From: Acidimicrobiia bacterium
Lineage (GTDB): Bacteria > Actinomycetota > Acidimicrobiia > Spongiisociales > UBA5794
Assembly: GCA_030065575.1 (NCBI GenBank)
Contig: JASJDZ010000043.1
Coordinates: 2,564 to 66,563, forward strand
DNA length: 64,000 nt
Direction: 5' to 3'
In this document: one piece after another, positions 42,083 to 63,968 of the stretch
How positions within the stretch are numbered: position 1 is the stretch's first letter
How the letters are laid out: the number at the start of each line of letters is the position of its first letter
Position numbers and translations under genes: made by a program
Notes under the pieces: generated by a model
Told to the model about the DNA's origin: nothing
The model's database searches: none
The model's input: only the letters and a program-made list of their open reading frames with translations

Positions 42083-43055
42083 AGTCGTGGGCGAACACAG
42101 CGAACCCGCCACCGGTGTGCCAGAAGACGATGTTCTCGCCCGGGCCGTACCGTCCCTCGCCGATTTCGCGGTGCAGGCCGGCCAGCGCCTTGCCGGTGTA
42201 TGTGGGATCGAAGATGAGCCCGGTCAACCGGGTTGCCTCCGCCTGAACCTCTAGCTCTTCGTCGGTGACCACCCCGTAGCCGCCGCCAACATGAGCATCG
42301 TTGTACTCAATGTGCGGACGCGGAGGATCGATTCCGAGCTGAGCGGCGGCCTCGGCCAGGATCGCCTCGACCTTGGCTCGAATCGTGGCACCGGGATCAC
42401 CTATGGAGCAAGCGACGATCCTCAGTTTCAACCCAAGTCGATCGACACCCCAGCCGATACCAGCGGTCGTGCCACCCGAGGAGGCGGCATGCCACAACAC
42501 CGGGCTGGACCCGTCGATCGCAGCCGCCTGGTCGGCGATCTCACGAAGGGCGAGGACAAACCCCCACATTCCGAGCCCGTCCGACGCTCCTTCTGGGATC
42601 ACCCAACACAGGCGTCCTTGATCGTTTTGGCTCGCGGCCTCGGTGACGAGAAGCTCATCACGCCGGTCCCAATCGGCCGGCGTGATGTAACGGATCTCGG
42701 CGCCGGCGAGCTGATCGAGGAGCAGGTTGCCGGAAAGATCCGCCTCTTCGCCCTCGCGGCGCCGCAGCAGAAGTACACAGTGCAGACCGAGACGGGCACA
42801 GGCCAGCGCGGTGGCCCGGGAGTGATTCGACTGCAGAGACCCACAGGTGACAACAGTGTCTGCACCTTTGTCGATAGCGGCGGCGAGGTGGAACTCCAGC
42901 TTGCGCACTTTGTTTCCGGAAAGACCGAAGCCGGTCAGGTCGTCACGCTTGAACCAGATCCGAGGACCGCCCCAGGCGACCGAAAGCCGCTCGGCGTACT
43001 CCAGGGGTGTCGGCGTGATCGCCAGCGGGATCCGTCTCGGCAGTTCCAACGACAT
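42036..43055 (-). CDS. PLP-dependent 1-aminocyclopropane-1-carboxylate deaminase / D-cysteine desulfhydrase family protein.
   Basis: It has the PLP-lysine region (SGNKVRKLEF), a tryptophan-synthase-beta-like fold and a GGGYG motif. Confidence 0.8.
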   Translation of the reverse strand: MSLELPRRIPLAITPTPLEYAERLSVAWGGPRIWFKRDDLTGFGLSGNKVRKLEFHLAAAIDKGADTVVTCGSLQSNHSRATALACARLGLHCVLLLRRREGEEADLSGNLLLDQLAGAEIRYITPADWDRRDELLVTEAASQNDQGRLCWVIPEGASDGLGMWGFVLALREIADQAAAIDGSSPVLWHAASSGGTTAGIGWGVDRLGLKLRIVACSIGDPGATIRAKVEAILAEAAAQLGIDPPRPHIEYNDAHVGGGYGVVTDEELEVQAEATRLTGLIFDPTYTGKALAGLHREIGEGRYGPGENIVFWHTGGGFAVFAHDFSRIVAAEDPGAPDA

Positions 43056-43134
43056 GGTCCGACACTACTCGTCCGCCGGGACGCGTCGCCGTGCGTGGAC
43101 GCCTCGGTTCGTCTACCGGCGCTACCGTTGCGGC

Positions 43135-43740
43135 ATGGCTCAGGAGCAACAGCAGTTCGTACTTGCCAGCGGCTCGCCGCGACGCAGGCTGCTGCTCACT
43201 GCGGCCGGTTACCGCTTCGACGTGATATCACCGGACATCGACGAGAGCCGCACGAAGGGGGAGAGGGCCGAGGAGTACGTGGTCCGGATGGCCCAGGAGA
43301 AGGCGGATGCGGTTGCGGAGCGCGTACCCACCGGCACCATCCTCCTCGGCTTCGACACCGCGGTGGTTCTCGCCGACCGCATCCTCGGAAAGCCGGCGGA
43401 CGAGGCGGAGGCCACGGCAATGCTGCTCTCACTGGCAGGAAGAACGCACACGGTCTATACCGGATACTCCCTGGTACGGGCCGGCGAAGGATTCGCCGCG
43501 AGCGGAGTCGACGCCTCCCGGGTGACGATGCGGCCGGTCAACCCGGCCGAAGCAGCCGAGTACGCCGCAACCGGAGAACCCCTGGACAAGGCAGGAGCGT
43601 ATGCCCTGCAAGGCAGGGGTCGGGAGTTCGTCTCCAAGGTCGAAGGAGCGAAGTCGACCGTGATCGGTCTCCCGCTCGAACACGTTGTCGATGCGTTGAC
43701 CCGTTCCGGTGTCCTTCCTGTCCACGATGGCGCCATTTGA
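43135..43740 (+). CDS. maf: Maf-like nucleoside triphosphate pyrophosphatase.
   Basis: It has an N-terminal LASGSPRRRLL motif and a Maf fold. The ATG is at 43135, and the long upstream in-frame extension is Arg-rich and non-coding-like. Confidence 0.85.
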   Translation: MAQEQQQFVLASGSPRRRLLLTAAGYRFDVISPDIDESRTKGERAEEYVVRMAQEKADAVAERVPTGTILLGFDTAVVLADRILGKPADEAEATAMLLSLAGRTHTVYTGYSLVRAGEGFAASGVDASRVTMRPVNPAEAAEYAATGEPLDKAGAYALQGRGREFVSKVEGAKSTVIGLPLEHVVDALTRSGVLPVHDGAI

Positions 43741-43820
43741 TGATTGCGCAATGATCCCGGAAATCGAGCCCCTCCCTAGGTAGAGTTCAAGCAGCATGCC
43801 GCCAGGGAGGAGACTGGTCT

Positions 43821-45491
43821 TTGCCGTTTGTCGCCGTCGTCGAGTCAGGGGTACCGCCCGGGTCGATAGACACGTTCACTGTCGTTAGTGGGCTCTTCGG
43901 GGGACTTGCCCTCTTCCTGATGGGAATGGACCGCCTCACGAAGTCGCTACGGCTCCTCGCCGGTGATCGGATGCGCGGAATTCTCACCCGCCTGACGACC
44001 AATCGCTTTGCGGCTGCCGGAACCGGGGCCGGGCTTACTGCGGTCATTCAGTCCTCGTCCGTCACAACCGTTCTCGTTGTCGGTTTCATAACGGCCGGGC
44101 TGATGACTGTGCAGCAATCCGTCGGCGTCATCCTCGGGGCGAACATCGGTACGACCGTCACCGCCCAGATCATCGCTTTCAAGGTGACGCGATACGCACT
44201 CGCTCTCATTGCAGTTGGCTTCGTGGTGCGCTTCGTGTCGAAGAACGATTCCCGTCGCGCCCAGGGCGGCCTGGTACTGGGACTCGGAATGGTCTTCTTC
44301 GGAATGTCGGTCATGGGCGACGCAATGAGCCCCCTCGGCGATTTGGCCGGCTTCCAGGACTGGATGGCGGGGATGTCCAACCCCATAGCCGGCGTAGCGG
44401 CCGGAGCGATATTCACCGCCGTCGTCCAATCATCATCCGCAACTACAGGTGTGGTGCTTGCCCTTGCCTTCGAGGGCCTGATCAGCCTGGAAGCAGGGAT
44501 CGCGCTCGTGCTCGGTGCAAATATCGGGACCAGTGTCACTGCGCAACTCGCTGCACTTGGCAAACCCCGCGCGGCGCAGCGGGCGGCCTGGGTACACACC
44601 CTATTCAACGGAATCGGCGTCCTGATCTGGTTGCCCTTCATCCCGTTGCTGGCAACGTTCGTTGAGGGAATAGGTGGCGACCTCGCCCGTCAGATTGCCA
44701 ATGCTCACACGGTGTTCAATGTGGTCAACGCCCTGCTGTTCATCGGGTTCACCAACCAGCTGGCAGCACTAGTGGAAAGAATCGTTCCAGACTTGGAGGT
44801 GGAGCCGCTGGTTCAGCCGCGCTATCTCGATGAGGGCCTGCTTGTTACCCCGGACCTGGCTCTGGCCCGATCGCGCCTCGAACTGCTCCGGTTGGCGGAA
44901 CGCGTGCGCCGCATGCTTGCGGATTCGCTTCCTGCCGTTCTCTCCGGAACCCCCGGTGAGCTTGCAGAGGTGGAGGCAATGGATGACGAAGTCGATGCAC
45001 TGTACGGTTCGATCGTCCAGTACCTAGGTCGCCTCAGCACGGCAGAGCTCGGATCCCGAGCCTCGTCCGAGCTATTTCAGCTGATGGAGGCGACCAACAA
45101 CCTCGAGGCTATCGGCGACATAATCGAGACCAACCTGGTCCAGATCGGCCTCACCCGGATCGAAAATGACATCGTCGTAAGCGCCGATACAACCGAGTTC
45201 ATGAACCACTTGCACGGAGAGGTCCTGCGCGCATTTGATCTAGCCATCCTCGCCGTAACCCAGAAGAACGAGGCGGCGGCTCGCGAGGTTCTATCCATGA
45301 AACGATCAATCAACACCTTGGCACGAAAGGCCGAGGCCCATGAGGCCGAACGCCTTGTGGCCGACGAGCCAAACCGCATTGCCTCTTACGGCTTCGAGAC
45401 CGACCTGATTGCCCATTTGAAGCGAGTCTTCTACTTCACTCGTCGCACCGCGCGGGTCGCAGTTCCGGTTGAGGAGCGCTCCCGGGGTTGA
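43821..45491 (+). CDS. Na+/phosphate cotransporter family protein (NptA-like) with C-terminal PhoU-like domains.
   Basis: It has duplicated QSSS motifs (AVIQSSSVTTV, VVQSSSATTG) in the membrane domain and a C-terminal PhoU-like helical region. Confidence 0.8.
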   Translation: MPFVAVVESGVPPGSIDTFTVVSGLFGGLALFLMGMDRLTKSLRLLAGDRMRGILTRLTTNRFAAAGTGAGLTAVIQSSSVTTVLVVGFITAGLMTVQQSVGVILGANIGTTVTAQIIAFKVTRYALALIAVGFVVRFVSKNDSRRAQGGLVLGLGMVFFGMSVMGDAMSPLGDLAGFQDWMAGMSNPIAGVAAGAIFTAVVQSSSATTGVVLALAFEGLISLEAGIALVLGANIGTSVTAQLAALGKPRAAQRAAWVHTLFNGIGVLIWLPFIPLLATFVEGIGGDLARQIANAHTVFNVVNALLFIGFTNQLAALVERIVPDLEVEPLVQPRYLDEGLLVTPDLALARSRLELLRLAERVRRMLADSLPAVLSGTPGELAEVEAMDDEVDALYGSIVQYLGRLSTAELGSRASSELFQLMEATNNLEAIGDIIETNLVQIGLTRIENDIVVSADTTEFMNHLHGEVLRAFDLAILAVTQKNEAAAREVLSMKRSINTLARKAEAHEAERLVADEPNRIASYGFETDLIAHLKRVFYFTRRTARVAVPVEERSRG

Positions 45492-46179: not shown

Positions 46180-47478
46180 CTAAGGGCTAGCTTCTAGTGA
46201 GCGCCGAATGAACCAGATCGCAAAGCTAACTGCGACGGCACCGCCAAGAATCCCGACGGCCGCAAACATGTTTTCGAGGAGAGCCGGCCGTATCAGCAGC
46301 AGTAGCCCGAGACCCAGCATCATCATGCCCGACATCAGCTTCAGAAACTGCCCCTCCCGCTCGGACAGTTTGCGCGAGCCGAGCGTCCAAACGAAGACGC
46401 CAACGATCACCAGAAGCGGGATGACATACACCAGGTTGTATAGAACCAGGTAGGAGTAGTAGCTCGCCGTCGAGAGATCGTTCAGGGTCAGCACCCGGGT
46501 GAAGACCAGCGGGAAACCGGCTGTGCAAAGCAACTCATAGCTGTTGGCAACAGCCGCCAGTGCCACAGTGCCCGCCAGCACTGTCGGCATCGAATCGCCG
46601 GTGGTCAGCTTCCTCATCCGGGCGAAGAGCCCTGGCCTGGCCGCGTCGGGTATCGAAAGCGAGCCTGCGGTTCCCGGTGCGAAGTAGTCCTTCATGTTGA
46701 GGAGCGCAATCACGAGCGCGATGGTGCCGGCCACGGCGGTCACCCATCTGAGCTGGCCGGTCACGAGGAACACGTTCAGCCAGGCTGCCATGAAAGCGAA
46801 GTACATGACCCCCGACATCACCACGAACACACCACCCACCAGGGCCATTCGCCACCGGCTCCGTGCATGCACCAGCAGGCTGAGCAAGAAGAGCAGGACG
46901 AAGAATGCACACGGGTTGAACGCATCGAGACCCGCCACCGCGATGGTGAAGATCGGCAGTGATACCCGGTCGGCATCGATATCACCTAGAACCGGGACGC
47001 TCAGGTCGTCGTCACTGTCACCCGACCCGGTTCCGGGGTCCGCGTTGCTAGAGAGCGCCTCAAAGCAGCGCACCAGTTCTGCCTCGAGCTCGGCGCCCTT
47101 CTCCTCGGCGCTGTCGAAACCGCCATCCATCTGCTCGCAGAAGAGATAGGTCGGTACCCCGACTATGTCCTCGCCGACCTCGTCGGCGAGTGCCAGCACC
47201 CTATTGACCTGTTCCTCGGTGGCGGACTCGGCGCTGACCCGGATCACCTGCAGCCAGTCATACTCCTGTTCGAGGTACTCGATGAAGGGTTTCGCCTTGG
47301 CGCAGTAGGCACACGTCTCGGAGTAGACGTAGTAGAAGGCAACCTGTTTGCTGCCCGACCCGTCCTGGGGATACCAATCGGACTGTTCCCCAGATTGAGC
47401 TGTGGACGCGCCGACCGGTGGCGCAAGGACTGCAATCGCCAGCGCCGTGAGCAGCACGAGAATCAGGACACGTTTCAT
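46180..47478 (-). CDS. Fusion of a thioredoxin-like domain and a CcdA/DsbD-like membrane domain.
   Basis: It has a signal peptide, a periplasmic Trx-like segment with CAYC, an acidic linker, and then a 6-8 TM domain. The TM domain has Cys residues in TM helices (NPCAFF, LLCTAGFP), as in CcdA. Confidence 0.6.
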   Translation of the reverse strand: MKRVLILVLLTALAIAVLAPPVGASTAQSGEQSDWYPQDGSGSKQVAFYYVYSETCAYCAKAKPFIEYLEQEYDWLQVIRVSAESATEEQVNRVLALADEVGEDIVGVPTYLFCEQMDGGFDSAEEKGAELEAELVRCFEALSSNADPGTGSGDSDDDLSVPVLGDIDADRVSLPIFTIAVAGLDAFNPCAFFVLLFLLSLLVHARSRWRMALVGGVFVVMSGVMYFAFMAAWLNVFLVTGQLRWVTAVAGTIALVIALLNMKDYFAPGTAGSLSIPDAARPGLFARMRKLTTGDSMPTVLAGTVALAAVANSYELLCTAGFPLVFTRVLTLNDLSTASYYSYLVLYNLVYVIPLLVIVGVFVWTLGSRKLSEREGQFLKLMSGMMMLGLGLLLLIRPALLENMFAAVGILGGAVAVSFAIWFIRRSLEASP

Positions 47479-52114: not shown

Positions 52115-53551
52115 ATGACTCTGCTGATCGGGTCGCTGATGCTCTCGATGGGGACGGCGGCTGTCGGCGCCGACCTCCCCCCGGGTGGGACATTCCTGGA
52201 CGACGATCACAGCGTCCACGAGAGCGCAATCGAAGCGATTGCTGCTGAGGGCATCACCCTTGGTTGCAACCCACCCGCCAACGACCGCTACTGCCCCCAG
52301 AATCCCGTCACCCGCGGCCAAATGGCCGCCTTCCTCGATCGAGCACTCAAGCTGCCCCCGACCACCCAAGCACCATTCAACGACGTCAGCGGAGTCTTCA
52401 CCGATTCCATCAACCGCCTCGCCGCCGCCGGCATCACCCTCGGCTGCAACCCACCCGCCAACGACCGCTACTGCCCCCAGAAGCTGATTACCAGAGCCGA
52501 GATGGCCACCTTCCTGACCCGGGCGCTCGGCTTGACTCCGCTAACCCCGCCGGTGCGACCCGGACCGCCAACGGGCAATCCTGACGGCAACGCGGTTGTC
52601 CCGGCAGAGGCGCAGGCCGAAAGCGTCTTCAACCCCGACATAGTCATCGGCAACGGCACGCCAGCCAGTTGCACCTCCGCAGCTGTGGTCGACGCAGTGG
52701 CGCAGGGTGGTGTGATCGTCTTCGACTGCGGGCCCGATCCGATCACGATCGAGATGATGGAGCCCGCCAAGGTCTTCAACAACACCGGCCCTGAGATCGT
52801 CATCGACGGCGGGGGACTCGTGACCCTGAGCGGGCGGAACCAAAACCGGATCCTGTATATGAACACGTGTGATCCTGACCTGATCTGGACAACCCCACAC
52901 TGTCAGAACCAGGACCATCCGCGGCTGACAGTGCAGAACCTGACGTTTGTCAACGGCAACTCGAAGGGAGATGACCCCGACGGGGGTGGAGCCATCTGGG
53001 TGCGCGGGGGCAGATTCAAGATCGTGAACTCACGATTCTTCAACAACGTGTGCGACGACGTCGGCCCTGATGTCGGCGGTGCCGCTGTTCGAGTCTTCAG
53101 CCAGTACCAGGGCCTTCCGGTATATGTCGTCAACAGCACCTTCGGCGGTGCCGAGGGCTACGGCAATGTCTGCTCGAACGGGGGAGGGCTGAGCAGCATC
53201 GGAGTCTCCTACACGGTCATCAACAGCCTGTTCACTCACAATCTGGCGATTGGGAACGGGGCGAATCCATCCCGTGGTGGCACCCCCGGAGGCGGCAGCG
53301 GTGGGGCCATCTACAACGACGGCAATACCTTCACGCTGAAGATCGTCGATACCGTCATCGAGGACAATCACGCCAACGAGGGCGGAGGCGCCATCTTCTT
53401 TGTCAGCAATGATCGATCCGGGAATCTTCGGATCGAGGACTCGACGCTTCGCCGCAACCCGAGTGATGGATTTGAGACTCGCGGCTTCCCCGGGATCTTC
53501 TACCTGGGAAGCGGGCCGATCCAGGTCGTCAACTCGACTATCGAGGAGTAG
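52115..53551 (+). CDS. Secreted protein with two SLH-like repeats and a C-terminal right-handed beta-helix (pectate-lyase/adhesin-like).
   Basis: It has a signal peptide (MTLLIGSLMLSMGTAAVGA). It has two 60-aa repeats of the type AIxxxAAxGITLGCNPPANDRYCPQxxxTRxxMAxFLxRAL. It then has Gly/Asn-rich repeats (GGGAIW, GGAIYNDGN, GGGAIFFVSND). Confidence 0.65.
   Translation: MTLLIGSLMLSMGTAAVGADLPPGGTFLDDDHSVHESAIEAIAAEGITLGCNPPANDRYCPQNPVTRGQMAAFLDRALKLPPTTQAPFNDVSGVFTDSINRLAAAGITLGCNPPANDRYCPQKLITRAEMATFLTRALGLTPLTPPVRPGPPTGNPDGNAVVPAEAQAESVFNPDIVIGNGTPASCTSAAVVDAVAQGGVIVFDCGPDPITIEMMEPAKVFNNTGPEIVIDGGGLVTLSGRNQNRILYMNTCDPDLIWTTPHCQNQDHPRLTVQNLTFVNGNSKGDDPDGGGAIWVRGGRFKIVNSRFFNNVCDDVGPDVGGAAVRVFSQYQGLPVYVVNSTFGGAEGYGNVCSNGGGLSSIGVSYTVINSLFTHNLAIGNGANPSRGGTPGGGSGGAIYNDGNTFTLKIVDTVIEDNHANEGGGAIFFVSNDRSGNLRIEDSTLRRNPSDGFETRGFPGIFYLGSGPIQVVNSTIEE
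52250..52482 (+). repeat. Two copies of a 53-nt near-identical direct repeat, 180 nt apart.
   Basis: The copies at 52250-52302 and 52430-52482 differ at 2 positions. They encode the GITLGCNPPANDRYCPQ cores of the two SLH-like repeats. Confidence 0.6.
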
Positions 53552-55445: not shown

Positions 55446-56273
55446 TCAGCCCTGGGGTTGTCCACGCTCTTCAACGGCCTTGCCGATGTGCTGGACGTAT
55501 TGAGCCATGGCATGGTCGCTGAAGTGGTCGACCTTCCCCTTCTTGAGCCCGTGGAAGAACCCGCGCCATCGGTCCTTCGCTCGTTGGCGCTTGGTCATCC
55601 GCCGCACGTTCCCGTAGGTGTTGATGTAGAGGCGACGCCCGGTGTGTCGGTATCCGAGCCAGGTGGGCGGGACGCGAGGCACGATGTCGTTGTTGTTGAC
55701 CCATCGGGTGAGGTCGACGTCGACGTTGTTGATATAGCGCTTGGTACCCACCCGGGGAGCTCCAAACGTGTAGACACCCGCCGGCATCGCCGGGATGTGG
55801 GCGAGGAAGCAACGGCCGGCGCAGATCGTGGCCATGGCGCCGCCTAGCGAGTGCCCGGTGAACCACAGGGTGCGGGGATCATCGGCGATGATCTCCTCGA
55901 GCAGCGGCCAAAGGTCGTCCACTTCCTGCTTGAAGCCGCGATGGACGCGACCGACGGTTTCTGCCAGCACCATCAATGCGTTGACGTCAGCCTTGACGTC
56001 GTTCCAGTCATTCGGTTCTGTGCCTCGGCATGCAACAACGATGTCTGTCTCGTTCCCGAAGACGTACGCCTGTGCTCCATTCCGATCTGCGAAATGCTCC
56101 AGATCGAGGCCTATTTGCGGGACGTAGTGGCGAACGGCGTCAGGCTGCAGGTAGGAGATGCGCGAGATCTCGGCGAACAGCAGCGAGGCTTCCATGCGCC
56201 CGAGTGGGCCAATCGGGCCGCTGTGGGCCATCGGGATATCTATCTCGGGGACCTGGGGTTCAGACTCGCTCAC
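55446..56273 (-). CDS. Class-3 (fungal-type) lipase family alpha/beta hydrolase.
   Basis: It has a GHSLGGA nucleophile elbow and Lipase_3 family topology. Confidence 0.75.
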   Translation of the reverse strand: MSESEPQVPEIDIPMAHSGPIGPLGRMEASLLFAEISRISYLQPDAVRHYVPQIGLDLEHFADRNGAQAYVFGNETDIVVACRGTEPNDWNDVKADVNALMVLAETVGRVHRGFKQEVDDLWPLLEEIIADDPRTLWFTGHSLGGAMATICAGRCFLAHIPAMPAGVYTFGAPRVGTKRYINNVDVDLTRWVNNNDIVPRVPPTWLGYRHTGRRLYINTYGNVRRMTKRQRAKDRWRGFFHGLKKGKVDHFSDHAMAQYVQHIGKAVEERGQPQG

Positions 56274-56322: not shown

Positions 56323-58791
56323 TCACCCGACGGTCACCGCTACCGCCACCGCGCCCTCGCCGTCGGCGGGCACCGGCGCCACTCCATCAGCAACCGGAAT
56401 GCCATCCACCAGCATGTGGATTTCATTTCCGGGACCCGTCCGCTGGACTGCAATGTCGTAGACGACACCGCGGAAGATGCGACGGGCACTGAATCCATCC
56501 CAGTGGGAGGGGAGCACCGGGCGGACTTCGAGCCCGTTGAAGGTGGGCCGAATGCCGAGGATCGCCTGGGTGATCGCGACGTAGTTCCACGCCGCCGTTC
56601 CGGTGAGCCATGAGTTCTTGGCCTCACCGTGACTCGGAGCGTCGCGGCCGGCAATTGTCTGCGCATACACGTACGGCTCTGCCCGGTGCACATCGCTGAT
56701 CTCTTCGCGCTCGGCGGGGCAGATACGGCGGTAGTACTCGAACGCTCGGTCCCCATTGCCCACCATCGTCTCGGCGACCACGATCCACGGATTGGAGTGA
56801 CAGAAGATGCTGCCGTTCTCCTTGTACCCCGGCGGGTACGTGGTTATCTCGCCCAGTTCAACGCGGTAGCCCGTGTACGGAGGTTGAACCAGCATGATCC
56901 CGTGATCCGTTGCGAGGTGCTCGGCGACTGAGTCGAGCGCTCTCGCCGCCAAACCGTTGGCCAGGCCGGCTCCACCCATGATGCTCCAGCCCTGCGATTC
57001 GATGAATACCCGACCTTCGTCACACTCGGCAGAACCAACCTTGTTTCCGAAGTGGTCGTAGGCGCGCACGAACCACTCACCGTCCCATCCTGCGGGACCT
57101 TCGATGATTGCGAGCATATCGGTTCGGGCTGTGGCGTACCGTGCGGCCAGATCGGGCCGGTCGATCTCCTGCGCTAGTGCCACCATCTCTGCGGCTGCAG
57201 CGCAGAACAACCCGGCGATCATGACGCTCTCCGCAACCTTGCCGTCACGACTCGTCGTGGTCTGGAACGACTCGCCGGGCTCCTCGGAGAAGCAGTTCAG
57301 GTTCAGACAGTCGTTCCAGTCTGCGCGACCGATCAGCGGTAGACCGTGCGGGCCGCGGCGGTCCAGCGTGAACTGCAACGAACGCTGGAGATGGTCGAGG
57401 AGTGGCTGCTCCGTCCCCGGGGTGTTCTGATACACAACCAACTCGTCGAGGATGCTCCGGTCGCCGGTCTCGCGAACGTAGGCAACGACCGCAAGGACGA
57501 GCCACAGGGGATCGTCGTTGAAATTGGTTCCAACAGCGTCATTACCTCGCTTGGTGAGCGGCTGATACTGATGGAAAGCGCCCCCATCCGGAAGCTGGGT
57601 AGCGGCTAGGTCGAGAATCCGCTCTCGAGCGCGCTCAGGGGCCATGTGGACGAATCCGAGGAGGTCCTGGTTCGAGTCGCGGAAGCCCAGGCCCCTCCCA
57701 ACGCCGGATTCGTAGAAAGAGGCAGAGCGAGACAGATTGAAGGTGACCATGTTCTGATACGCGTTCCAGATGTTCACCATGCGGTTGGTGGCCTCATCCG
57801 GCGTCGATACCTGGAAGAGCCCGAGCAGTCTGTCCCACTGCTCGCCCAGGGAGCCGAACGATCGGTCGACATGTTCTTCGTCGAGGAAGCGGTCGATGAC
57901 GCTGGCGACGCGACGCTTGTCGATGCGCTCGGGGTGCTCAGCGTCGAACTTCTCGTCACGTGGATTCTCGGAGTAGCCGAGCAGGAACACAAGGCGCTGC
58001 GACGCGTGCGGCTCGAGTTCCAGATCTACCTGGTGTACGCCGACCGGAGCCCATCCGTTGGCGATGCTTCGGGTGGTCGCTCCGGACTCGACGGCCTGTG
58101 GGGTGTCCCACCCGCGATACGTGCCGAGGAAGGACTCACGCTGTGTGTCGAACCCCGCGGTTGGCGCTGAGCAAGCGAAGTAGGCGAAGTGATCACGACG
58201 TTCCCGGTACTCGGTCTTGTGATAGATGACTCCATCCTCGACCTCGACTTCCCCGGTGTTGAAGTTGCGCTGGAAGTTCGTCATGTCGTCCTGGGCATCC
58301 CAGAGGGCAAACTCGACCGAGGCAAACAGCGATAGGGAAGCCGGGGTGGCGCGCAGATTGGTGACGGTCACATCCCAAACCTCGAGTGTCTCTCCGGAAG
58401 GCACGAAGTAGCGGGTTTCCGTGCGAATCCCATCTCGAGTTGACCCGATGATCGTATAGCCGAGCCCATGCCGGCAGGAGTAGTCGTCAACTGGTGCTCG
58501 CACCGGCATCCAACTTGGAGACCAGAACTCGCCGTTGGCGCCGTCCCGGATGTAGAGGTAGCGGCCGCCAAAGTCGAAGGGGACGTTGTTGTACCGGTAG
58601 CGCGTGAGACGGCGAAGGCGCGCATCCCGGTAGAAGGAATAGCCACCGGCGGTATTCGAGATCAAGCCGAAGTAGCTCTCGGACCCCAGATAGTTGAACC
58701 AGGGGAGGGGAGTCTCCGGGGTTGTCACTACGTACTCACGGGCCGCGTCGTCGAAGTATCCGTAGCGCACAAGGACTCCTTTGATCGGCAT
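56323..58791 (-). CDS. GH94 glycoside phosphorylase (cellobiose / N,N'-diacetylchitobiose phosphorylase family).
   Basis: At 822 aa it has a GH94 N-terminal beta-sandwich and an (alpha/alpha)6 catalytic barrel. The barrel has the conserved ADWND and GRGLGFRDSNQD regions. Confidence 0.85.
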   Translation of the reverse strand: MPIKGVLVRYGYFDDAAREYVVTTPETPLPWFNYLGSESYFGLISNTAGGYSFYRDARLRRLTRYRYNNVPFDFGGRYLYIRDGANGEFWSPSWMPVRAPVDDYSCRHGLGYTIIGSTRDGIRTETRYFVPSGETLEVWDVTVTNLRATPASLSLFASVEFALWDAQDDMTNFQRNFNTGEVEVEDGVIYHKTEYRERRDHFAYFACSAPTAGFDTQRESFLGTYRGWDTPQAVESGATTRSIANGWAPVGVHQVDLELEPHASQRLVFLLGYSENPRDEKFDAEHPERIDKRRVASVIDRFLDEEHVDRSFGSLGEQWDRLLGLFQVSTPDEATNRMVNIWNAYQNMVTFNLSRSASFYESGVGRGLGFRDSNQDLLGFVHMAPERARERILDLAATQLPDGGAFHQYQPLTKRGNDAVGTNFNDDPLWLVLAVVAYVRETGDRSILDELVVYQNTPGTEQPLLDHLQRSLQFTLDRRGPHGLPLIGRADWNDCLNLNCFSEEPGESFQTTTSRDGKVAESVMIAGLFCAAAAEMVALAQEIDRPDLAARYATARTDMLAIIEGPAGWDGEWFVRAYDHFGNKVGSAECDEGRVFIESQGWSIMGGAGLANGLAARALDSVAEHLATDHGIMLVQPPYTGYRVELGEITTYPPGYKENGSIFCHSNPWIVVAETMVGNGDRAFEYYRRICPAEREEISDVHRAEPYVYAQTIAGRDAPSHGEAKNSWLTGTAAWNYVAITQAILGIRPTFNGLEVRPVLPSHWDGFSARRIFRGVVYDIAVQRTGPGNEIHMLVDGIPVADGVAPVPADGEGAVAVAVTVG

Positions 58792-58835
58792 CGCTGCGGG
58801 TATCGAAGCGAACCGCGGCGGAGCCTAGCCGCCGC

Positions 58836-60368
58836 GTGTTCGAGCCCGGCGGGTCAGTCGCCCACACCAAACGCGGTCAACCGGCCCTATCCCCGGCCGC
58901 TGCAGGTCCGCATGCTGTTGGCGTGAAACACGTAACCATCATCGGCGGTGGTGTGATCGGCTGCGCCATCGCCCGGGAATTGACCCGGTACCGTCTCGAT
59001 GTCGTCCTGGTCGAGAGCGAGGTCGAGGTTGGGTTCGGCACATCGAAGTCGAACAGCGGCATCATCCACGGCGGTCATCACACTGAGCCCGGCACCCTGA
59101 AGGGCGAACTGGCCTGGGCCGGGAATCAGCGATGGGTTCGCTTGGCTCAGGAACTCGGTTTCGGCTTCAGAAGAAACGGTGACCTGACCGTCGCCTTCGA
59201 TGAAGCAGATGTCGAGGTGCTCGAGAAGATCGCGCAGCAGGGCCGGGACCGCGACATCCCCGGGGTCGAGATCTGGGGCCCAGACAAGATCCGCCTCGAG
59301 GAGCCCAATCTCAATCAAGACATCATTGCAGCGGTGGACGGCCCGACAGCAGGAGTCGTCAATCCCTACGAGGCATGCTTTGCGCTGGTCGAATGCGCCG
59401 TCGCCAACGGGCTAGGCCTTCGCGTCGGTGCCCCGGTGACGGCCATTGAAGCTGGAGGCGATGGGCTTCTGGTTCACGCCGGCGGGGAGCCAATTGAGAC
59501 GCAGTTCGTCATCAACGCAGCAGGGGTCCATGCCGAGAAGGTGGCTCGAATGGTCGGGCTGCTCGAGCCGACCATTCGGGGACGGAAGGGGGAGGAGTAT
59601 CTCCTCGACAAGCGGCTGGCCAGCATCGTGCAACGGACGATCTTCCCTTGCCCGACGCCGACCTCGAAAGGGATCCTGGTCATACCGACCTTCGACGGGA
59701 CAATCATGGTGGGACCAACGGCCCAAGCAGTGGAGGATCTGGAGGATGTAGCCACCACTGCAGTCGGGGCCGCTACGACCTTCGACCTGGCGCGACGTCT
59801 AGTCCCCGGGATCAGCGAGCGGGATTGCATTGCCGAGTTTGCCGGAGTTCGGGCGGTTGCAGGCAACAACGACTTCGTAGTCGGACCGACAAGCGTCCCG
59901 GGCTTCTTCAACGCTGCCGGGATTCAGTCACCGGGACTGACGGCAGCACCGGCGATTGCGGAAATGCTCGTTCACATGCTGGGCGAGGCGGGACTCGATC
60001 TGCTCCCTCGCCCTGAGTTCAAGCGCACTATGCCCCGCCCCGTCCACGCTGCTTCGATCTCAGTCGGCGAGCTAACCGAAATGGCCGAGCGCGACCGGCG
60101 CTTCGCTCGAGTTGTCTGCCGTTGCGAGTTGGTGACCGAGGCCGAGATACACGATGCGATCGACCGTGGGGCGCGCACCCTCGATGGCCTCAAATTCCGC
60201 ACCCGCGCCGGTATGGGTCGCTGTCAGGGTGGTTTTTGCACCTCACGCTGCATGCAGCTACTCGCGGCTGAGTCCGGCGCCGCAATGAGTGACATCACCA
60301 AGCGGGGCGATGGCTCGTGGCTGGTTCTCGACCGCAACCAGCTGGGTACCGCTGAGGTGCCGACATGA
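58836..60368 (+). CDS. GlpA-like FAD-dependent oxidoreductase with a C-terminal BFD-like [2Fe-2S] domain. The start may instead be the GTG at 58923.
   Basis: It has a [20 protein letters not shown] motif and a DAO-type fold. The C-terminus has [15 protein letters not shown]...[12 protein letters not shown]. Confidence 0.75.
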
Positions 60369-61645
60369 TGCCGCTGAGCAATCTCCGTGATGAGTACGAC
60401 ACTGTTGTCGTCGGAGCCGGCCCCGCCGGTATGGCCGCGGCACTCTCTGCGCTTCGCACCGGAGTAGAGACCGTCCTCATGGTCGATCGTGAGGTCGAAC
60501 CGGGCGGGATCCTCAACCAGTGCATCCACAACGGGTTTGGGCTCCATCACTTCGGCGAAGAGCTGACCGGTCCCGAGTATGCACAGCGTTTCCTCACCGA
60601 CCTGCTCGACCATCACATCGACATCGCAACCGACTGCTATGTGCTGGACGTCACCCCCGATCGCCTCGTGACTCTGATGTCACCTGCGGTCGGCGTCCGC
60701 CAGGTTCTTGCCGGGGCCGTGGTGCTGGCGATGGGAGCCAGAGAGCGAACCCGCGGCGCCATCCGCATCCCCGGACAGCGGCCCTCGGGCGTCATGACGG
60801 CGGGCCTGGCGCAGAAGTTTGTCAACCAGATGGGCCTATTGCCGGGCAAGCGGGCGGTAATCCTCGGATCGGGTGACATCGGCCTGATCATGGCAAGACG
60901 CATGACCCTCGAAGGCGTCGAGGTGCCCGGGGTATTCGAGATCATGCCGCATGCGAACGGCCTGACCCGCAACATCGTGCAGTGCCTCCATGACTTCGAT
61001 ATTCCATTGCACCTCTCCACGACCGTGGTGGAGATCCACGGGCGAGACCGCGTCGAGAAGGTGACCGTCGCTCCGGTCGATGATCAGCTGCGGCCGGATC
61101 TGAGCCGGGCGCACACGGTCAAATGCGACACCCTGTTGGCCTCGATCGGGCTCATTCCTGAGAACGAGCTGTCACAGAAGCTCGGGCTGCGCCTCGATCC
61201 GACCACGGCAGGACCCGTGGTGACATCGACGATGGAGACATCCCGGGACGGCGTGTTTGCCGCCGGCAATGTTGTGCACATTCACGATCTAGTCGACTTC
61301 GTGAGCCAGGAAGCCCTTCTCGCCGGCGAGAACGCCGCTCGCTACGTGACCGGCCGTCGGCCTCCCGCCGACAACATCAAGTTGAGCTCGGGAGCGAACG
61401 TGGCGTCGGTAGTGCCGCACACAATCTCCTCCGACCGGGAGCACACGGTGTATCTGAGGGTCCGCAAACCGATGGAGAAGAGTTGGTTGCGGCTTGGCGA
61501 CGTCTACGAGAAGCGCCTGCGCTACGTAGTACCCGCGGAGATGGTCTCGCTGAAGGTCCGGCCCCGGTTCCTGGAGCACTTCCACGGAGACAGCCTGACC
61601 ATCGATATCGTCCCCCGAGACGAGCCGGGAAGGGAGGAGCCGTGA
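60365..61645 (+). CDS. FAD/NAD(P)-binding pyridine-nucleotide-disulfide-type oxidoreductase.
   Basis: It has two Rossmann motifs ([27 protein letters not shown]). Its start overlaps the upstream stop and its stop overlaps the downstream GTG. Confidence 0.75.
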
Positions 61646-62040
61646 GCAGCGACGACGTGAGCAAGACGACTCAGTACCTGTGCATCGGCTGTCCCCTCGG
61701 GTGCCGGCTCGAGGTCGATGAGGGCCCGGTCGGTGACATCGTGGAGATCAGGGGTTTCTCGTGCCGCAAAGGGAAGACCTTCGCCGAACGGGAGCACACA
61801 GATCCCCGCCGGATGATCACCACTACCGTCGGGGTGACCGGCGGTCTTTGGGCTCGCCTTCCCGTGCACGCCACCGAAGAGATGCCAAAGCAACTCATGT
61901 GGGACGTCATAGAGGCGCTGCGTCGAGTCACGGTCACGGCCCCGATATCCGTGGGAGATGTCATTGTTCCCGGAATCCTCGGAACCGACGTTGACGTCGT
62001 GGCCTCCCGCGACATGCCCGCGGCGGAGCCGGCCGCGTAG
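61642..62040 (+). CDS. DUF1667 small Cys-rich protein.
   Basis: It has a GTG start after GGGAGGAG and a CIGCPLGC...FSCRKG cysteine motif. It is the third gene of the coupled triad. Confidence 0.6.
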
Positions 62041-63155: not shown

Positions 63156-63968
63156 GTGTCAAGACGTCTGATGTTGGGTTTGGTCGCAACGGCGCTGGTC
63201 GCCGTGGGTGCGATCCTGTTCGCGATTCCGCGCGGATCGACGGTCGACGTTTCCTTCGATTGGACTCTCGAAGATGGATGCCCCGATGCTGTTCTGATCG
63301 GAGCTGCAGGCTCGGGTCAGCGGGATGACATCCTGGGCGTTGGCCCGCAGGTGGAATCGACAGTGTCGGCATTTGTGGACCAACTCACCGAACGAGCATC
63401 AAGCTCGGTTTCGGTCGGCTTCACTGCACTCGACTACCCGGCGCCCGACTTCATCGAAGGCACTCTGCAAGCGCTTCGGGGCGACACGATGTTCGGGTCC
63501 ATAGAGGAGGGCCGGACCACAATGATCTCTCTCGTTGGGGACATCGATAGTCAGTGCACCGATTCGGGTGTCTATCTGATCGGTTTCTCGCAGGGAGCGT
63601 CGGTCGTCCACACTTCGATAGTCGAAATGCCTCTGGAGTATCGGGATGCGATTGCTGGGGCGGTCGTGCTTGCCAATCCGTACCGCGACGCAGATGACCC
63701 GAACGCACAGCACTTTACCAACCAACCGGATCCGAACAGATCCGGAGATCCTTCGCCGCACACACGGGATGGGTCGCTCACCGCTATTGCGTTGCCGGAT
63801 TGGGTGAATGGATCCTTCTACTCGGCATGTGCGCAACGCGACACTGTCTGCAATTTCGCTCTGCGCGACCTATTCGCCACCGAGGCGGCCCACACTGAAC
63901 CCGCCTACCACGGCCTGGGTCCGCAACTCGGCCGGCTCCTTGCGGATGATTTGCTTGGGCGGCTGTAA
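63156..63968 (+). CDS. Cutinase-family secreted esterase.
   Basis: It has a signal/TM segment, the cutinase signatures CPDAVLIGAAGSGQ and GFSQGA (GYSQG-type nucleophile elbow), and conserved Cys pairs. Confidence 0.7.
   Translation: MSRRLMLGLVATALVAVGAILFAIPRGSTVDVSFDWTLEDGCPDAVLIGAAGSGQRDDILGVGPQVESTVSAFVDQLTERASSSVSVGFTALDYPAPDFIEGTLQALRGDTMFGSIEEGRTTMISLVGDIDSQCTDSGVYLIGFSQGASVVHTSIVEMPLEYRDAIAGAVVLANPYRDADDPNAQHFTNQPDPNRSGDPSPHTRDGSLTAIALPDWVNGSFYSACAQRDTVCNFALRDLFATEAAHTEPAYHGLGPQLGRLLADDLLGRL

Follow-up and report, generated by a model that had tools for sequence, protein, structure and literature searches.

We examined a 64,000-nt stretch of an Acidimicrobiia metagenome-assembled genome (MAG), referred to here as the window, and within it three open reading frames (ORFs) that lie head to tail on the + strand. 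These genes, A, B and C, encode a flavin adenine dinucleotide (FAD)-dependent dehydrogenase, a two-Rossmann flavoprotein and a small cysteine-rich protein, and they are candidates for a complex that oxidizes sn-glycerol-3-phosphate (G3P). The elements of the locus are as follows.

58923-60368, + strand: gene A, a 481-aa FAD-dependent dehydrogenase, the proposed G3P-oxidizing catalytic subunit
58932-59975, + strand: DAO-fold FAD/substrate domain of A (Pfam), which holds S45, H49, R221, K249 and R310
60111-60266, + strand: BFD-like [2Fe-2S] domain of A (Pfam PF04324), with ligand cysteines C399, C401, C434 and C439
60365-60368, + strand: A/B overlap ATGA, the B start codon over the A stop codon; reads ccgacATGAtg
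60365-61645, + strand: gene B, a 426-aa two-Rossmann flavoprotein, "NOX" in the Thermococcus nomenclature
61642-61645, + strand: B/C overlap GTGA, the C start codon over the B stop codon; reads gagccGTGAgc
61642-62040, + strand: gene C, with a GTG start, a 132-aa Cys-rich DUF1667 protein, "MOX" in the Thermococcus nomenclature
61681-61764, + strand: C-x2-C-x3-C-x19-C motif of C (C14, C17, C21 and C41), a probable [4Fe-4S] site
61768-62010, + strand: DUF1667 domain of C (Pfam)

Starts and stops were read on the + strand, and residues of A are numbered from GTG 58923. The longest ORF for A opens at GTG 58836, which the first-pass annotation had taken as the beginning of the locus (58836-62040); the sole alternative in-frame start is GTG 58923. 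We placed A at 58923-60368 because this start gives 481 aa, matching the length and N-terminus of homologs that are 90% identical (P0002 and P0003). All three ORFs of the earlier call are present, with a better start for A at the downstream GTG. The ORF for C had similarly been listed from TTG 61483, an upstream extension of the GTG 61642 gene. That the three genes are joined by 4-nt overlaps was borne out at both junctions.

Domain searches agreed with the first-pass descriptions of all three proteins. A combines a DAO domain (PF01266, 9.8e-65) with a C-terminal Fer2_BFD domain (PF04324, 1.1e-12), whose four ligand cysteines are kept in 86 of 86 homologs; the closest homologs of A, 90-92% identical, come from Acidimicrobiia MAGs. 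B is a two-Rossmann FAD/NAD(P) oxidoreductase (Pyr_redox_2, PF07992, 7.4e-30). C is a small CxxCxxxC protein of the DUF1667 family (PF07892, 7.2e-27) in which C14, C17, C21 and the more distant C41 are kept in 81 of 81 homologs, and it is 100% identical to P0121, which is annotated in an Acidimicrobiia MAG at NCBI as "DUF1667 domain-containing protein".

A genome scan with one genome per species returned 80 loci with an A homolog of at least 56% identity. A, B and C were directly consecutive, and in the same order, at 76 of the 76 loci whose contig reaches far enough, spanning some eight phyla; at the remaining four of the 80, the contigs stop inside or just past A or B. This conservation is far beyond chance, and it upholds the first-pass statement that the arrangement recurs and shows that the three genes stay together in relatives. 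The hosts include Acidimicrobiia, Trueperaceae (Deinococcota), Chloroflexi, many filamentous Cyanobacteria (Arthrospira among them), Myxococcota, Pirellulaceae (Planctomycetes), Acidobacteria, Margulisbacteria and Alphaproteobacteria. Across the loci, B is the most conserved protein (65-94% identity), followed by A (56-90%) and C (47-85%). By heuristic start calls, A and B overlap by 4 nt in 49 of 83 loci, and B and C do so in 23 of 80. Clustering of the 770 ORFs that flank the 80 loci, with Pfam searches on recurrent clusters, identified no conserved neighbor; the clusters represented synteny confined to particular lineages and generic families of paralogs (ABC transporters, sensor kinases), along with antisense artifacts that longest-ORF calling produced in high-GC genomes.

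The cyanobacterial hosts deserve a separate remark. In 2010, the genome report for Arthrospira platensis NIES-39 listed DUF1667 for A. platensis alone out of 38 cyanobacterial genomes (PMC2853384). We found the triad in Arthrospira (locus L056) and in many filamentous, mat-forming or saline cyanobacteria, including Geitlerinema, Coleofasciculus, Phormidium, Lyngbya, Spirulina and Trichodesmium. This patchy, habitat-linked distribution suggests horizontal spread.

The same set of genes has been described in other organisms. Schmerling et al. 2025 (PMC11962113; preprint 10.1101/2024.02.29.582781) define a "GlpTk" family with three components: a G3P dehydrogenase (G3PDH), then "NOX", a pyridine-nucleotide-disulfide oxidoreductase, and "MOX", a DUF1667/"molybdopterin oxidoreductase Fe4S4" protein. 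Its members occur in Thermococcales, Desulfurococcales, T. maritima and C. perfringens; in Giardia, Entamoeba and Spironucleus the components are fused. The GlpTk-NOX-MOX complex of T. kodakarensis is soluble, and Koga et al. 2019, as cited in PMC11962113, reconstituted it in vitro. The fused Giardia protein transfers electrons from G3P to phenazine methosulfate (PMS) and the tetrazolium dye MTT, an activity mapped to its N-terminal module, or half (Lalle et al., PMC4450592); these authors state that the final electron acceptor is unknown and speculate that the activity is bidirectional. A DAO+Fer2_BFD protein of Caloramator (A0A0R3K2G2) has G3P dehydrogenase activity with 2,6-dichlorophenolindophenol (DCPIP) and PMS, and none with nicotinamide adenine dinucleotide (NAD) or its phosphate (NADP) alone (Rembeza and Engqvist, PMC8491902). 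According to other papers, P. thermosuccinogenes carries the triad between glpP and glpK, and a Bipolaricaulota isolate has it adjacent to glycerol kinase. The first-pass annotation had assigned the triad no physiological substrate; that statement is superseded, as the same triad is published as a G3P dehydrogenase (PMC11962113) and homologs have G3P activities (PMC4450592, PMC8491902).

The window has every architectural element of a GlpTk-NOX-MOX system: a DAO+BFD subunit, a NOX gene directly 3' of it, and a DUF1667 protein encoded by the third gene. Both gene order and Pfam architecture (DAO+BFD, Pyr_redox_2, DUF1667) are those of the Thermococcus kodakarensis G3PDH-NOX-MOX genes TK1393-TK1391. 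Giardia duodenalis gG3PD (GL50803_16125) and its Entamoeba and Spironucleus homologs have the same three modules in the same order, although in gG3PD they are fused in one 1111-aa polypeptide, whereas in the window they are specified by three translationally coupled genes. A further difference lies in the hosts. The GlpTk family of the literature belongs to anaerobes, whereas the clade of the window, itself from an Acidimicrobiia MAG, consists mostly of aerobes and phototrophs, usually without an adjacent glycerol kinase.

Family and structure comparisons of A pointed to G3P enzymes. Its top NCBIfam family was the type-2 G3P oxidase (GlpO; NF033460), at 248 bits against a cut-off of 460, followed by LhgO (150, cut-off 299), GlpA (134) and ThiO/glycine oxidase (104), all below their cut-offs. 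The best match in the PDB was GlpO of Mycoplasma pneumoniae (MpGlpO; 4x9m, 2e-41); next came Bp3253 (3dme, 3.3e-25) and Drosophila L2HGDH (8w75, 2.5e-24). A also matched PDH1 beta (1y56_B, 4e-15) and glycine oxidases (1e-9 to 1e-17). Type-2 GlpO thus ranks first for A among solved structures and among curated families alike; A is ~31% identical to the Mycoplasmopsis enzyme.

Ser47, His51, Lys258 and Arg320 of MpGlpO align opposite S45, H49, K249 and R310 of A (the 4x9m chain carries a 34-residue tag), and His51 is the proposed catalytic base (PMC10726252). Together with R221, these residues of A match the type-2 GlpO active site and are invariant in our homolog alignment. Lys258 and Arg320 we take to bind phosphate. 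A is not, however, a type-2 GlpO proper: it missed the NF033460 cut-off, has an extra BFD domain and is accompanied by B and C. Type-2 GlpO is a stand-alone oxidase of ~384 aa that lacks both the BFD domain and such partners, whereas A carries the domain and has obligate partners in B and C.

The first-pass annotation had proposed phylogenetic placement of A, and we built a neighbor-joining tree with 100 bootstraps. It included the A proteins of anaerobe triads, Mycoplasmopsis type-2 GlpO, the A' proteins of a two-gene sister module (see below), LhgD, E. coli GlpA and GlpD proteins; Thermococcus was represented by no sequence. The A of the window fell in a cross-phylum clade with 100% bootstrap support. 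This clade grouped with the glp-linked A proteins from triads of anaerobes in 68 of 100 bootstraps; in 71 of 100, it grouped with these plus Mycoplasmopsis type-2 GlpO. Triads, type-2 GlpO, A' and LhgD were set apart from E. coli GlpA and from the GlpD proteins in all 100.

This split bears on whether the triad is the classical anaerobic enzyme, GlpABC. The resemblance to E. coli GlpABC is real at the level of layout, as the proposed reaction is the same, GlpA also has a DAO fold and a BFD [2Fe-2S] domain, both systems have three subunits with Fe-S relays, and homologs of A carry the Joint Genome Institute (JGI) label "glycerol-3-phosphate dehydrogenase". GlpABC is, however, membrane-associated and quinone-linked (PMC11962113), whereas we propose a soluble complex for the window. 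Identity between A and E. coli GlpA is just 24% (69 bits), and A scored far below the GlpA profiles (134 against a cut-off of 553 for TIGR03377; 97 against 425 for PRK11101), so that A is no clear GlpA ortholog. When B and C were compared with GlpB and GlpC by BLASTP, all matches were at chance level (E >1). We conclude from the low identity to GlpA, the lack of similarity of B and C to GlpB and GlpC, and the separation in the tree that the triad is not GlpABC; at the level of family membership this identity is refuted, and we give it practically no chance of being correct.

Amino-acid and opine dehydrogenase complexes combine a DAO-fold beta subunit with a pyridine-nucleotide-type alpha subunit and small subunits. 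The triad could on this pattern be a member of that group, which includes the archaeal PDH1 proline dehydrogenase, flavin opine dehydrogenase, heterotetrameric sarcosine oxidase and hydrogen cyanide (HCN) synthase, and the first-pass annotation had likened it to proline and opine dehydrogenases. The PDH1 beta and glycine oxidase matches of A fit such a relationship, as do the best NCBIfam match of B, the SoxA-alpha family (1.1e-24), and the presence of SoxA 2gag_A among the fold matches of B. These likenesses proved distant: the match of A to G3P oxidase (2e-41) is far stronger than that to PDH1 beta, A scored 19 bits against a cut-off of 529 for soxB (TIGR01373), and the soxA score was 86 against 1164. 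Furthermore, the catalytic His/Lys/Arg set fits hydroxy-acid or G3P enzymes, the small subunit is a DUF1667 protein rather than a gamma or delta subunit, and no amino-acid or opine genes lie nearby in the window. We rejected the PDH1, opine and sarcosine oxidase complexes as identities for the triad and regard membership in this group as very improbable.

The next-nearest DAO-fold family is L-2-hydroxyglutarate dehydrogenase (L2HGDH, or LhgD; PDB 8w75, and Bp3253, 3dme), which has the catalytic His, and also the Ser and Arg, in common with A. LhgD lacks a BFD domain and B/C partners. We used Tyr289, His302 and Arg393 (dmL2HGDH numbering) as test residues, together with model NF008726 (cut-off 299). 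The L2HGDH-specific histidine (His302), present in LhgD, is replaced by Leu in the triads, and the column of K249 is Lys in the triads and Pro in E. coli LhgD. With a score of 150 bits in addition, we rejected an L2HGDH identity for A.

Gene context in relatives provided a second line of evidence on the substrate. In Acetoanaerobium noterae the order is glpP-glpF-glpK-A-B-C, with an A that is 40% identical to that of the window and a GlpK 68% identical to E. coli GlpK; in Vescimonas, a G3P-responsive antiterminator directly follows A-B-C. A Rhodospirillales MAG (L090), which belongs to the tight clade of the window (A 58% and B 71% identical), has a complete island at L090:5006-17252: a glycerol-type ABC transporter with DUF2160, a DeoR regulator/glpR, GlpK, A-B-C, classical GlpD, a GDPD phosphodiesterase and a Ugp-like transporter. 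GlpD, GlpR or GlpK adjoins the triad at three further alphaproteobacterial loci (L079, L082 and L070). The relatives with a glycerol or G3P gene association are L088, L086, L090/L047, L079, L082 and L070. For the matches to the E. coli GlpK and GlpF queries used here, Pfam FGGY labels and existing glpK annotations served as a cross-check.

At L090, L079, L082 and L070, the triad shares its island with a classical GlpD (DAO+DAO_C). These Alphaproteobacteria would therefore carry two different FAD-dependent G3P dehydrogenases side by side, as E. coli does with GlpD and GlpABC.

The architecture match to GlpTk-NOX-MOX, type-2 GlpO as top family and top structure, the invariant Ser/His/Lys/Arg residues, the glp linkage in relatives and the literature all support G3P as the substrate. 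We consider it probable that A, B and C form a single operon, with translational coupling, and encode a soluble G3P dehydrogenase of the Thermococcus type (GlpTk-NOX-MOX) that is heterotrimeric or of higher order. By homology, active-site conservation and context in relatives, G3P is the likely substrate of A; G3P-dependent activity and a physical A-B-C complex would be expected by analogy with the homologs. On this reading the triad opens no new class: it would be the known Thermococcus-type complex in an Acidimicrobiia genome.

Several observations weigh against this assignment. A scores under the curated cut-off of every G3P family, including type-2 GlpO, and its grouping with the glp-linked triads has only moderate support (68-71%). 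The likeness to TK1393-TK1391, Giardia gG3PD and Caloramator A0A0R3K2G2 is one of described architecture. No glpK, glpF, glpD, glpR or ugp was found in the 64-kb window (tblastn with GlpK, GlpF, GlpD, GlpR, GlpP, GDPD and UgpB; Pfam over 42-64 kb). Neighbors of this kind occur at only four of the 76 close-clade loci, all in Alphaproteobacteria; the other 72 have none, and the Acidimicrobiia, Chloroflexi, Cyanobacteria and Deinococcota loci are all among those without. Lastly, several alignment columns close to the active site show systematic differences between the close clade and the anaerobe clade.

These last differences, at columns 52-53, 225-226, 246-248 and 258-260, could mean that the substrate has shifted in the cross-phylum "aerobe" clade, with A oxidizing another anionic 2-hydroxy compound (L-2-hydroxyglutarate, a phosphorylated polyol or a hydroxy acid) through the same B/C module. 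The tightness of the clade, the 72 loci without a glp neighbor and the rank of LhgO as second-best NCBIfam family (150 bits) are in keeping with such a shift, and the scaffold is evidently reusable, since an A'-B' pair without C lies beside FGGY kinases other than GlpK. However, the LhgO score is itself below cut-off, the L2HGDH-specific His is absent from the triads, which have Lys where LhgD has Pro, and the Lys and Arg positions common with type-2 GlpO are retained. Members of the same clade, at 58% identity, also sit inside complete glp/ugp islands. We therefore regard a changed substrate as quite unlikely and retain G3P.

The sister module itself comprises two genes and lacks the DUF1667 gene. 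We found it on a Streptomyces plasmid (NZ_CP107962.1; L089:4487-8615) and an Agrobacterium tumefaciens plasmid (NZ_CP139999.1; L093:4854-10798). A' is ~31% identical to A and B' ~33% to B, and the Ser/His/Lys/Arg columns are kept. Its neighbors are an FGGY kinase only 35-38% identical to GlpK and an amino-acid permease, with a DeoR regulator or a class II fructose-bisphosphate (FBP) aldolase at one locus each. The A'-B' module looks like a sister system for another phosphorylated polyol.

Features of B and C bear on how electrons might leave A. In B, the FAD motif reads VVVGAGPAG and the NAD(P)H motif LGSGDIG...VFE; the latter has an invariant E192 at the end of beta-2, where an acidic residue usually signals NADH. 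The B sequence contains no redox-active CxxC or CxxxxC pair, and three near-invariant, widely spaced cysteines (C53, C207 and C254) are present. A beta-rich, uncharacterized region of ~100 aa forms the C-terminus. The structural model of B was mediocre (predicted local distance difference test, pLDDT, 66), and fold searches returned generic two-Rossmann flavoproteins (TrxR-type FNR, TrxR and AhpF, besides SoxA). Across phyla B is more conserved than the catalytic subunit (65-94% against 56-90%), and its most conserved segments, 125-159, 195-211 and 261-292, are those with AlphaFold pLDDT <50. Low pLDDT in the most conserved segments suggests that they are interface or cofactor regions ordered only in the complex.

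In C, the four-Cys N-terminal motif is probably a [4Fe-4S] site, judging from the sequence. PF04879 Molybdop_Fe4S4 matched weakly and below threshold (E 0.0016; 18.8 bits, cut-off 22.7); this match suggests such a site, and it accounts for the "molybdopterin oxidoreductase" label on the Thermococcus protein. In the AlphaFold model of C (mean pLDDT 77.7), the DUF1667 domain matched the nuclear magnetic resonance (NMR) structure 2jov, C. perfringens CPE0013 (template modeling score, TM, 0.74 on target; E 1.2e-4); the N-terminal Cys domain gave only non-significant structural matches to MopB-type Fe4S4 domains.

In the mechanism that we propose, G3P would enter the DAO-fold domain of A, where His49 would accept the proton of the C2 hydroxyl and Lys249, Arg310 and Arg221 would hold the phosphate. 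Hydride transfer to the FAD of A would yield dihydroxyacetone phosphate (DHAP). Electrons would then exit A singly via the BFD [2Fe-2S] cluster, with the four-Cys, probably [4Fe-4S], cluster of C as the next carrier and the FAD of B after it. B may deliver them to O2, by NADH-oxidase-like chemistry, or to a pyridine nucleotide or other soluble carrier. Within this scheme we infer the order of the redox centers, the type of cluster that C holds, which way the reaction runs and what the terminal acceptor is.

By textbook values, the G3P/DHAP couple lies near -190 mV and NAD+/NADH near -320 mV. With a gap of ~130 mV, plain transfer from G3P to NAD+ would be uphill, and this leaves as alternatives O2 or another higher-potential acceptor, reverse, NAD(P)H-driven reduction of DHAP, and coupling to a second donor (confurcation).

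If the physiological direction were reversed, B would draw electrons from NAD(P)H and the complex would form G3P by reducing DHAP, so as to make glycerol or glycerolipids or to balance redox state, and not to break down glycerol. This direction is downhill, as G3P/DHAP is the more positive couple; the second Rossmann motif of B is intact, its invariant E192 is typical of NADH binding, and most close-clade loci are unlinked to genes for glycerol uptake or kinase. Lalle et al. (PMC4450592), as noted, also speculated on bidirectional activity. Against this, the linkage that does exist is to catabolic genes (glpK, glpF, glpP, glpD, ugp and GDPD), bacteria normally make G3P through NAD(P)H-dependent GpsA, and the in vitro activities reported are of G3P oxidation (PMC4450592, PMC8491902). 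We think it unlikely that the complex runs in this direction, and prefer G3P oxidation.

There is a small but appreciable chance that the tight cross-phylum clade of the window is more than a copy of the glycerol-catabolic anaerobe type, and represents a soluble G3P/DHAP redox module with acceptor chemistry that has not been described. Such chemistry could take the form of an O2-reducing "G3P oxidase by committee", an NAD(P)H-linked DHAP reductase, or a flavin-based bifurcating or confurcating enzyme. In the last case, the G3P/DHAP pair (-190 mV) could be coupled to NAD(P) and a second carrier, and the DUF1667 Fe-S protein and the three invariant cysteines of B would serve as the branching wire. 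Combined with the position of the triad beside quinone-linked GlpD in several Alphaproteobacteria, new acceptor chemistry would argue for a non-redundant role.

An assignment as Thermococcus-type G3P dehydrogenase would give these genes a specific, literature-backed role in place of their current labels, "NAD(P)/FAD-dependent oxidoreductase", "FAD-dependent oxidoreductase" and "DUF1667 domain-containing protein". Far from being confined to the anaerobes of the original description, the triad occurs widely, and with very strong conservation, in aerobic and phototrophic phyla, where it is mostly uncoupled from glycerol kinase. The physiological acceptor, the function of DUF1667 and the invariant cysteines of B are of interest across the family, and a tractable aerobe homolog could help to settle the acceptor and the function of DUF1667.

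The immediate surroundings of the operon include the following elements.

58792-58922, no strand: divergent intergenic region of 131 bp between the GH94 gene (- strand) and gene A
56323-58791, - strand: GH94 gene (Pfam), divergent from A
55446-56273, - strand: class-3 lipase (Pfam)

The 131-bp region presumably holds the promoter of the operon; a scan of 58792-58922 gave no sigma-70-like or other promoter-like site, and no Rfam match. Terminator-like sites in the window occurred only at chance level in the signal scan, and across the whole 64-kb window (1-64000) there were no tRNA genes and no Rfam family above its gathering threshold. GC content is 61-65% across the window.

The GH94 phosphorylase and lipase named as neighbors at first pass were both confirmed by Pfam, and the view that the local context is uninformative held, as these neighbors are not conserved. 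The GH94 product, of 822 aa, is of the cellobiose/chitobiose phosphorylase type and matched no NCBIfam model; its divergent arrangement with A is common only to the closest relative, L004 (77% identity). Genes for an AAA_28 protein, a PH-like protein and a cutinase (Pfam) lie 3' of the triad, and synteny of GH94 and AAA_28 is retained in L004 only. The class-3 lipase and a cutinase-family esterase (63156-63968, + strand) flank the operon within ~3 kb. It is possible, though unproven, that by freeing glycerol or fatty acids from esters they provide a link to G3P metabolism; neither gene is kept beside the triad in relatives.

Farther from the operon, the long ORFs at 42291-43754 and 46180-47478 have no Pfam match. 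Between them, at 43821-45491 (+ strand), is a Na+/Pi cotransporter fused to a PhoU domain, adjoined by genes for an HD-domain protein and a PfkB-family sugar kinase. At 52118-53551 (+ strand), the window encodes a large, secreted-looking protein with tandem S-layer-homology repeats (motif "GCNPPANDRYCPQ"), followed by a Gly/Asn-rich region without a Pfam match.

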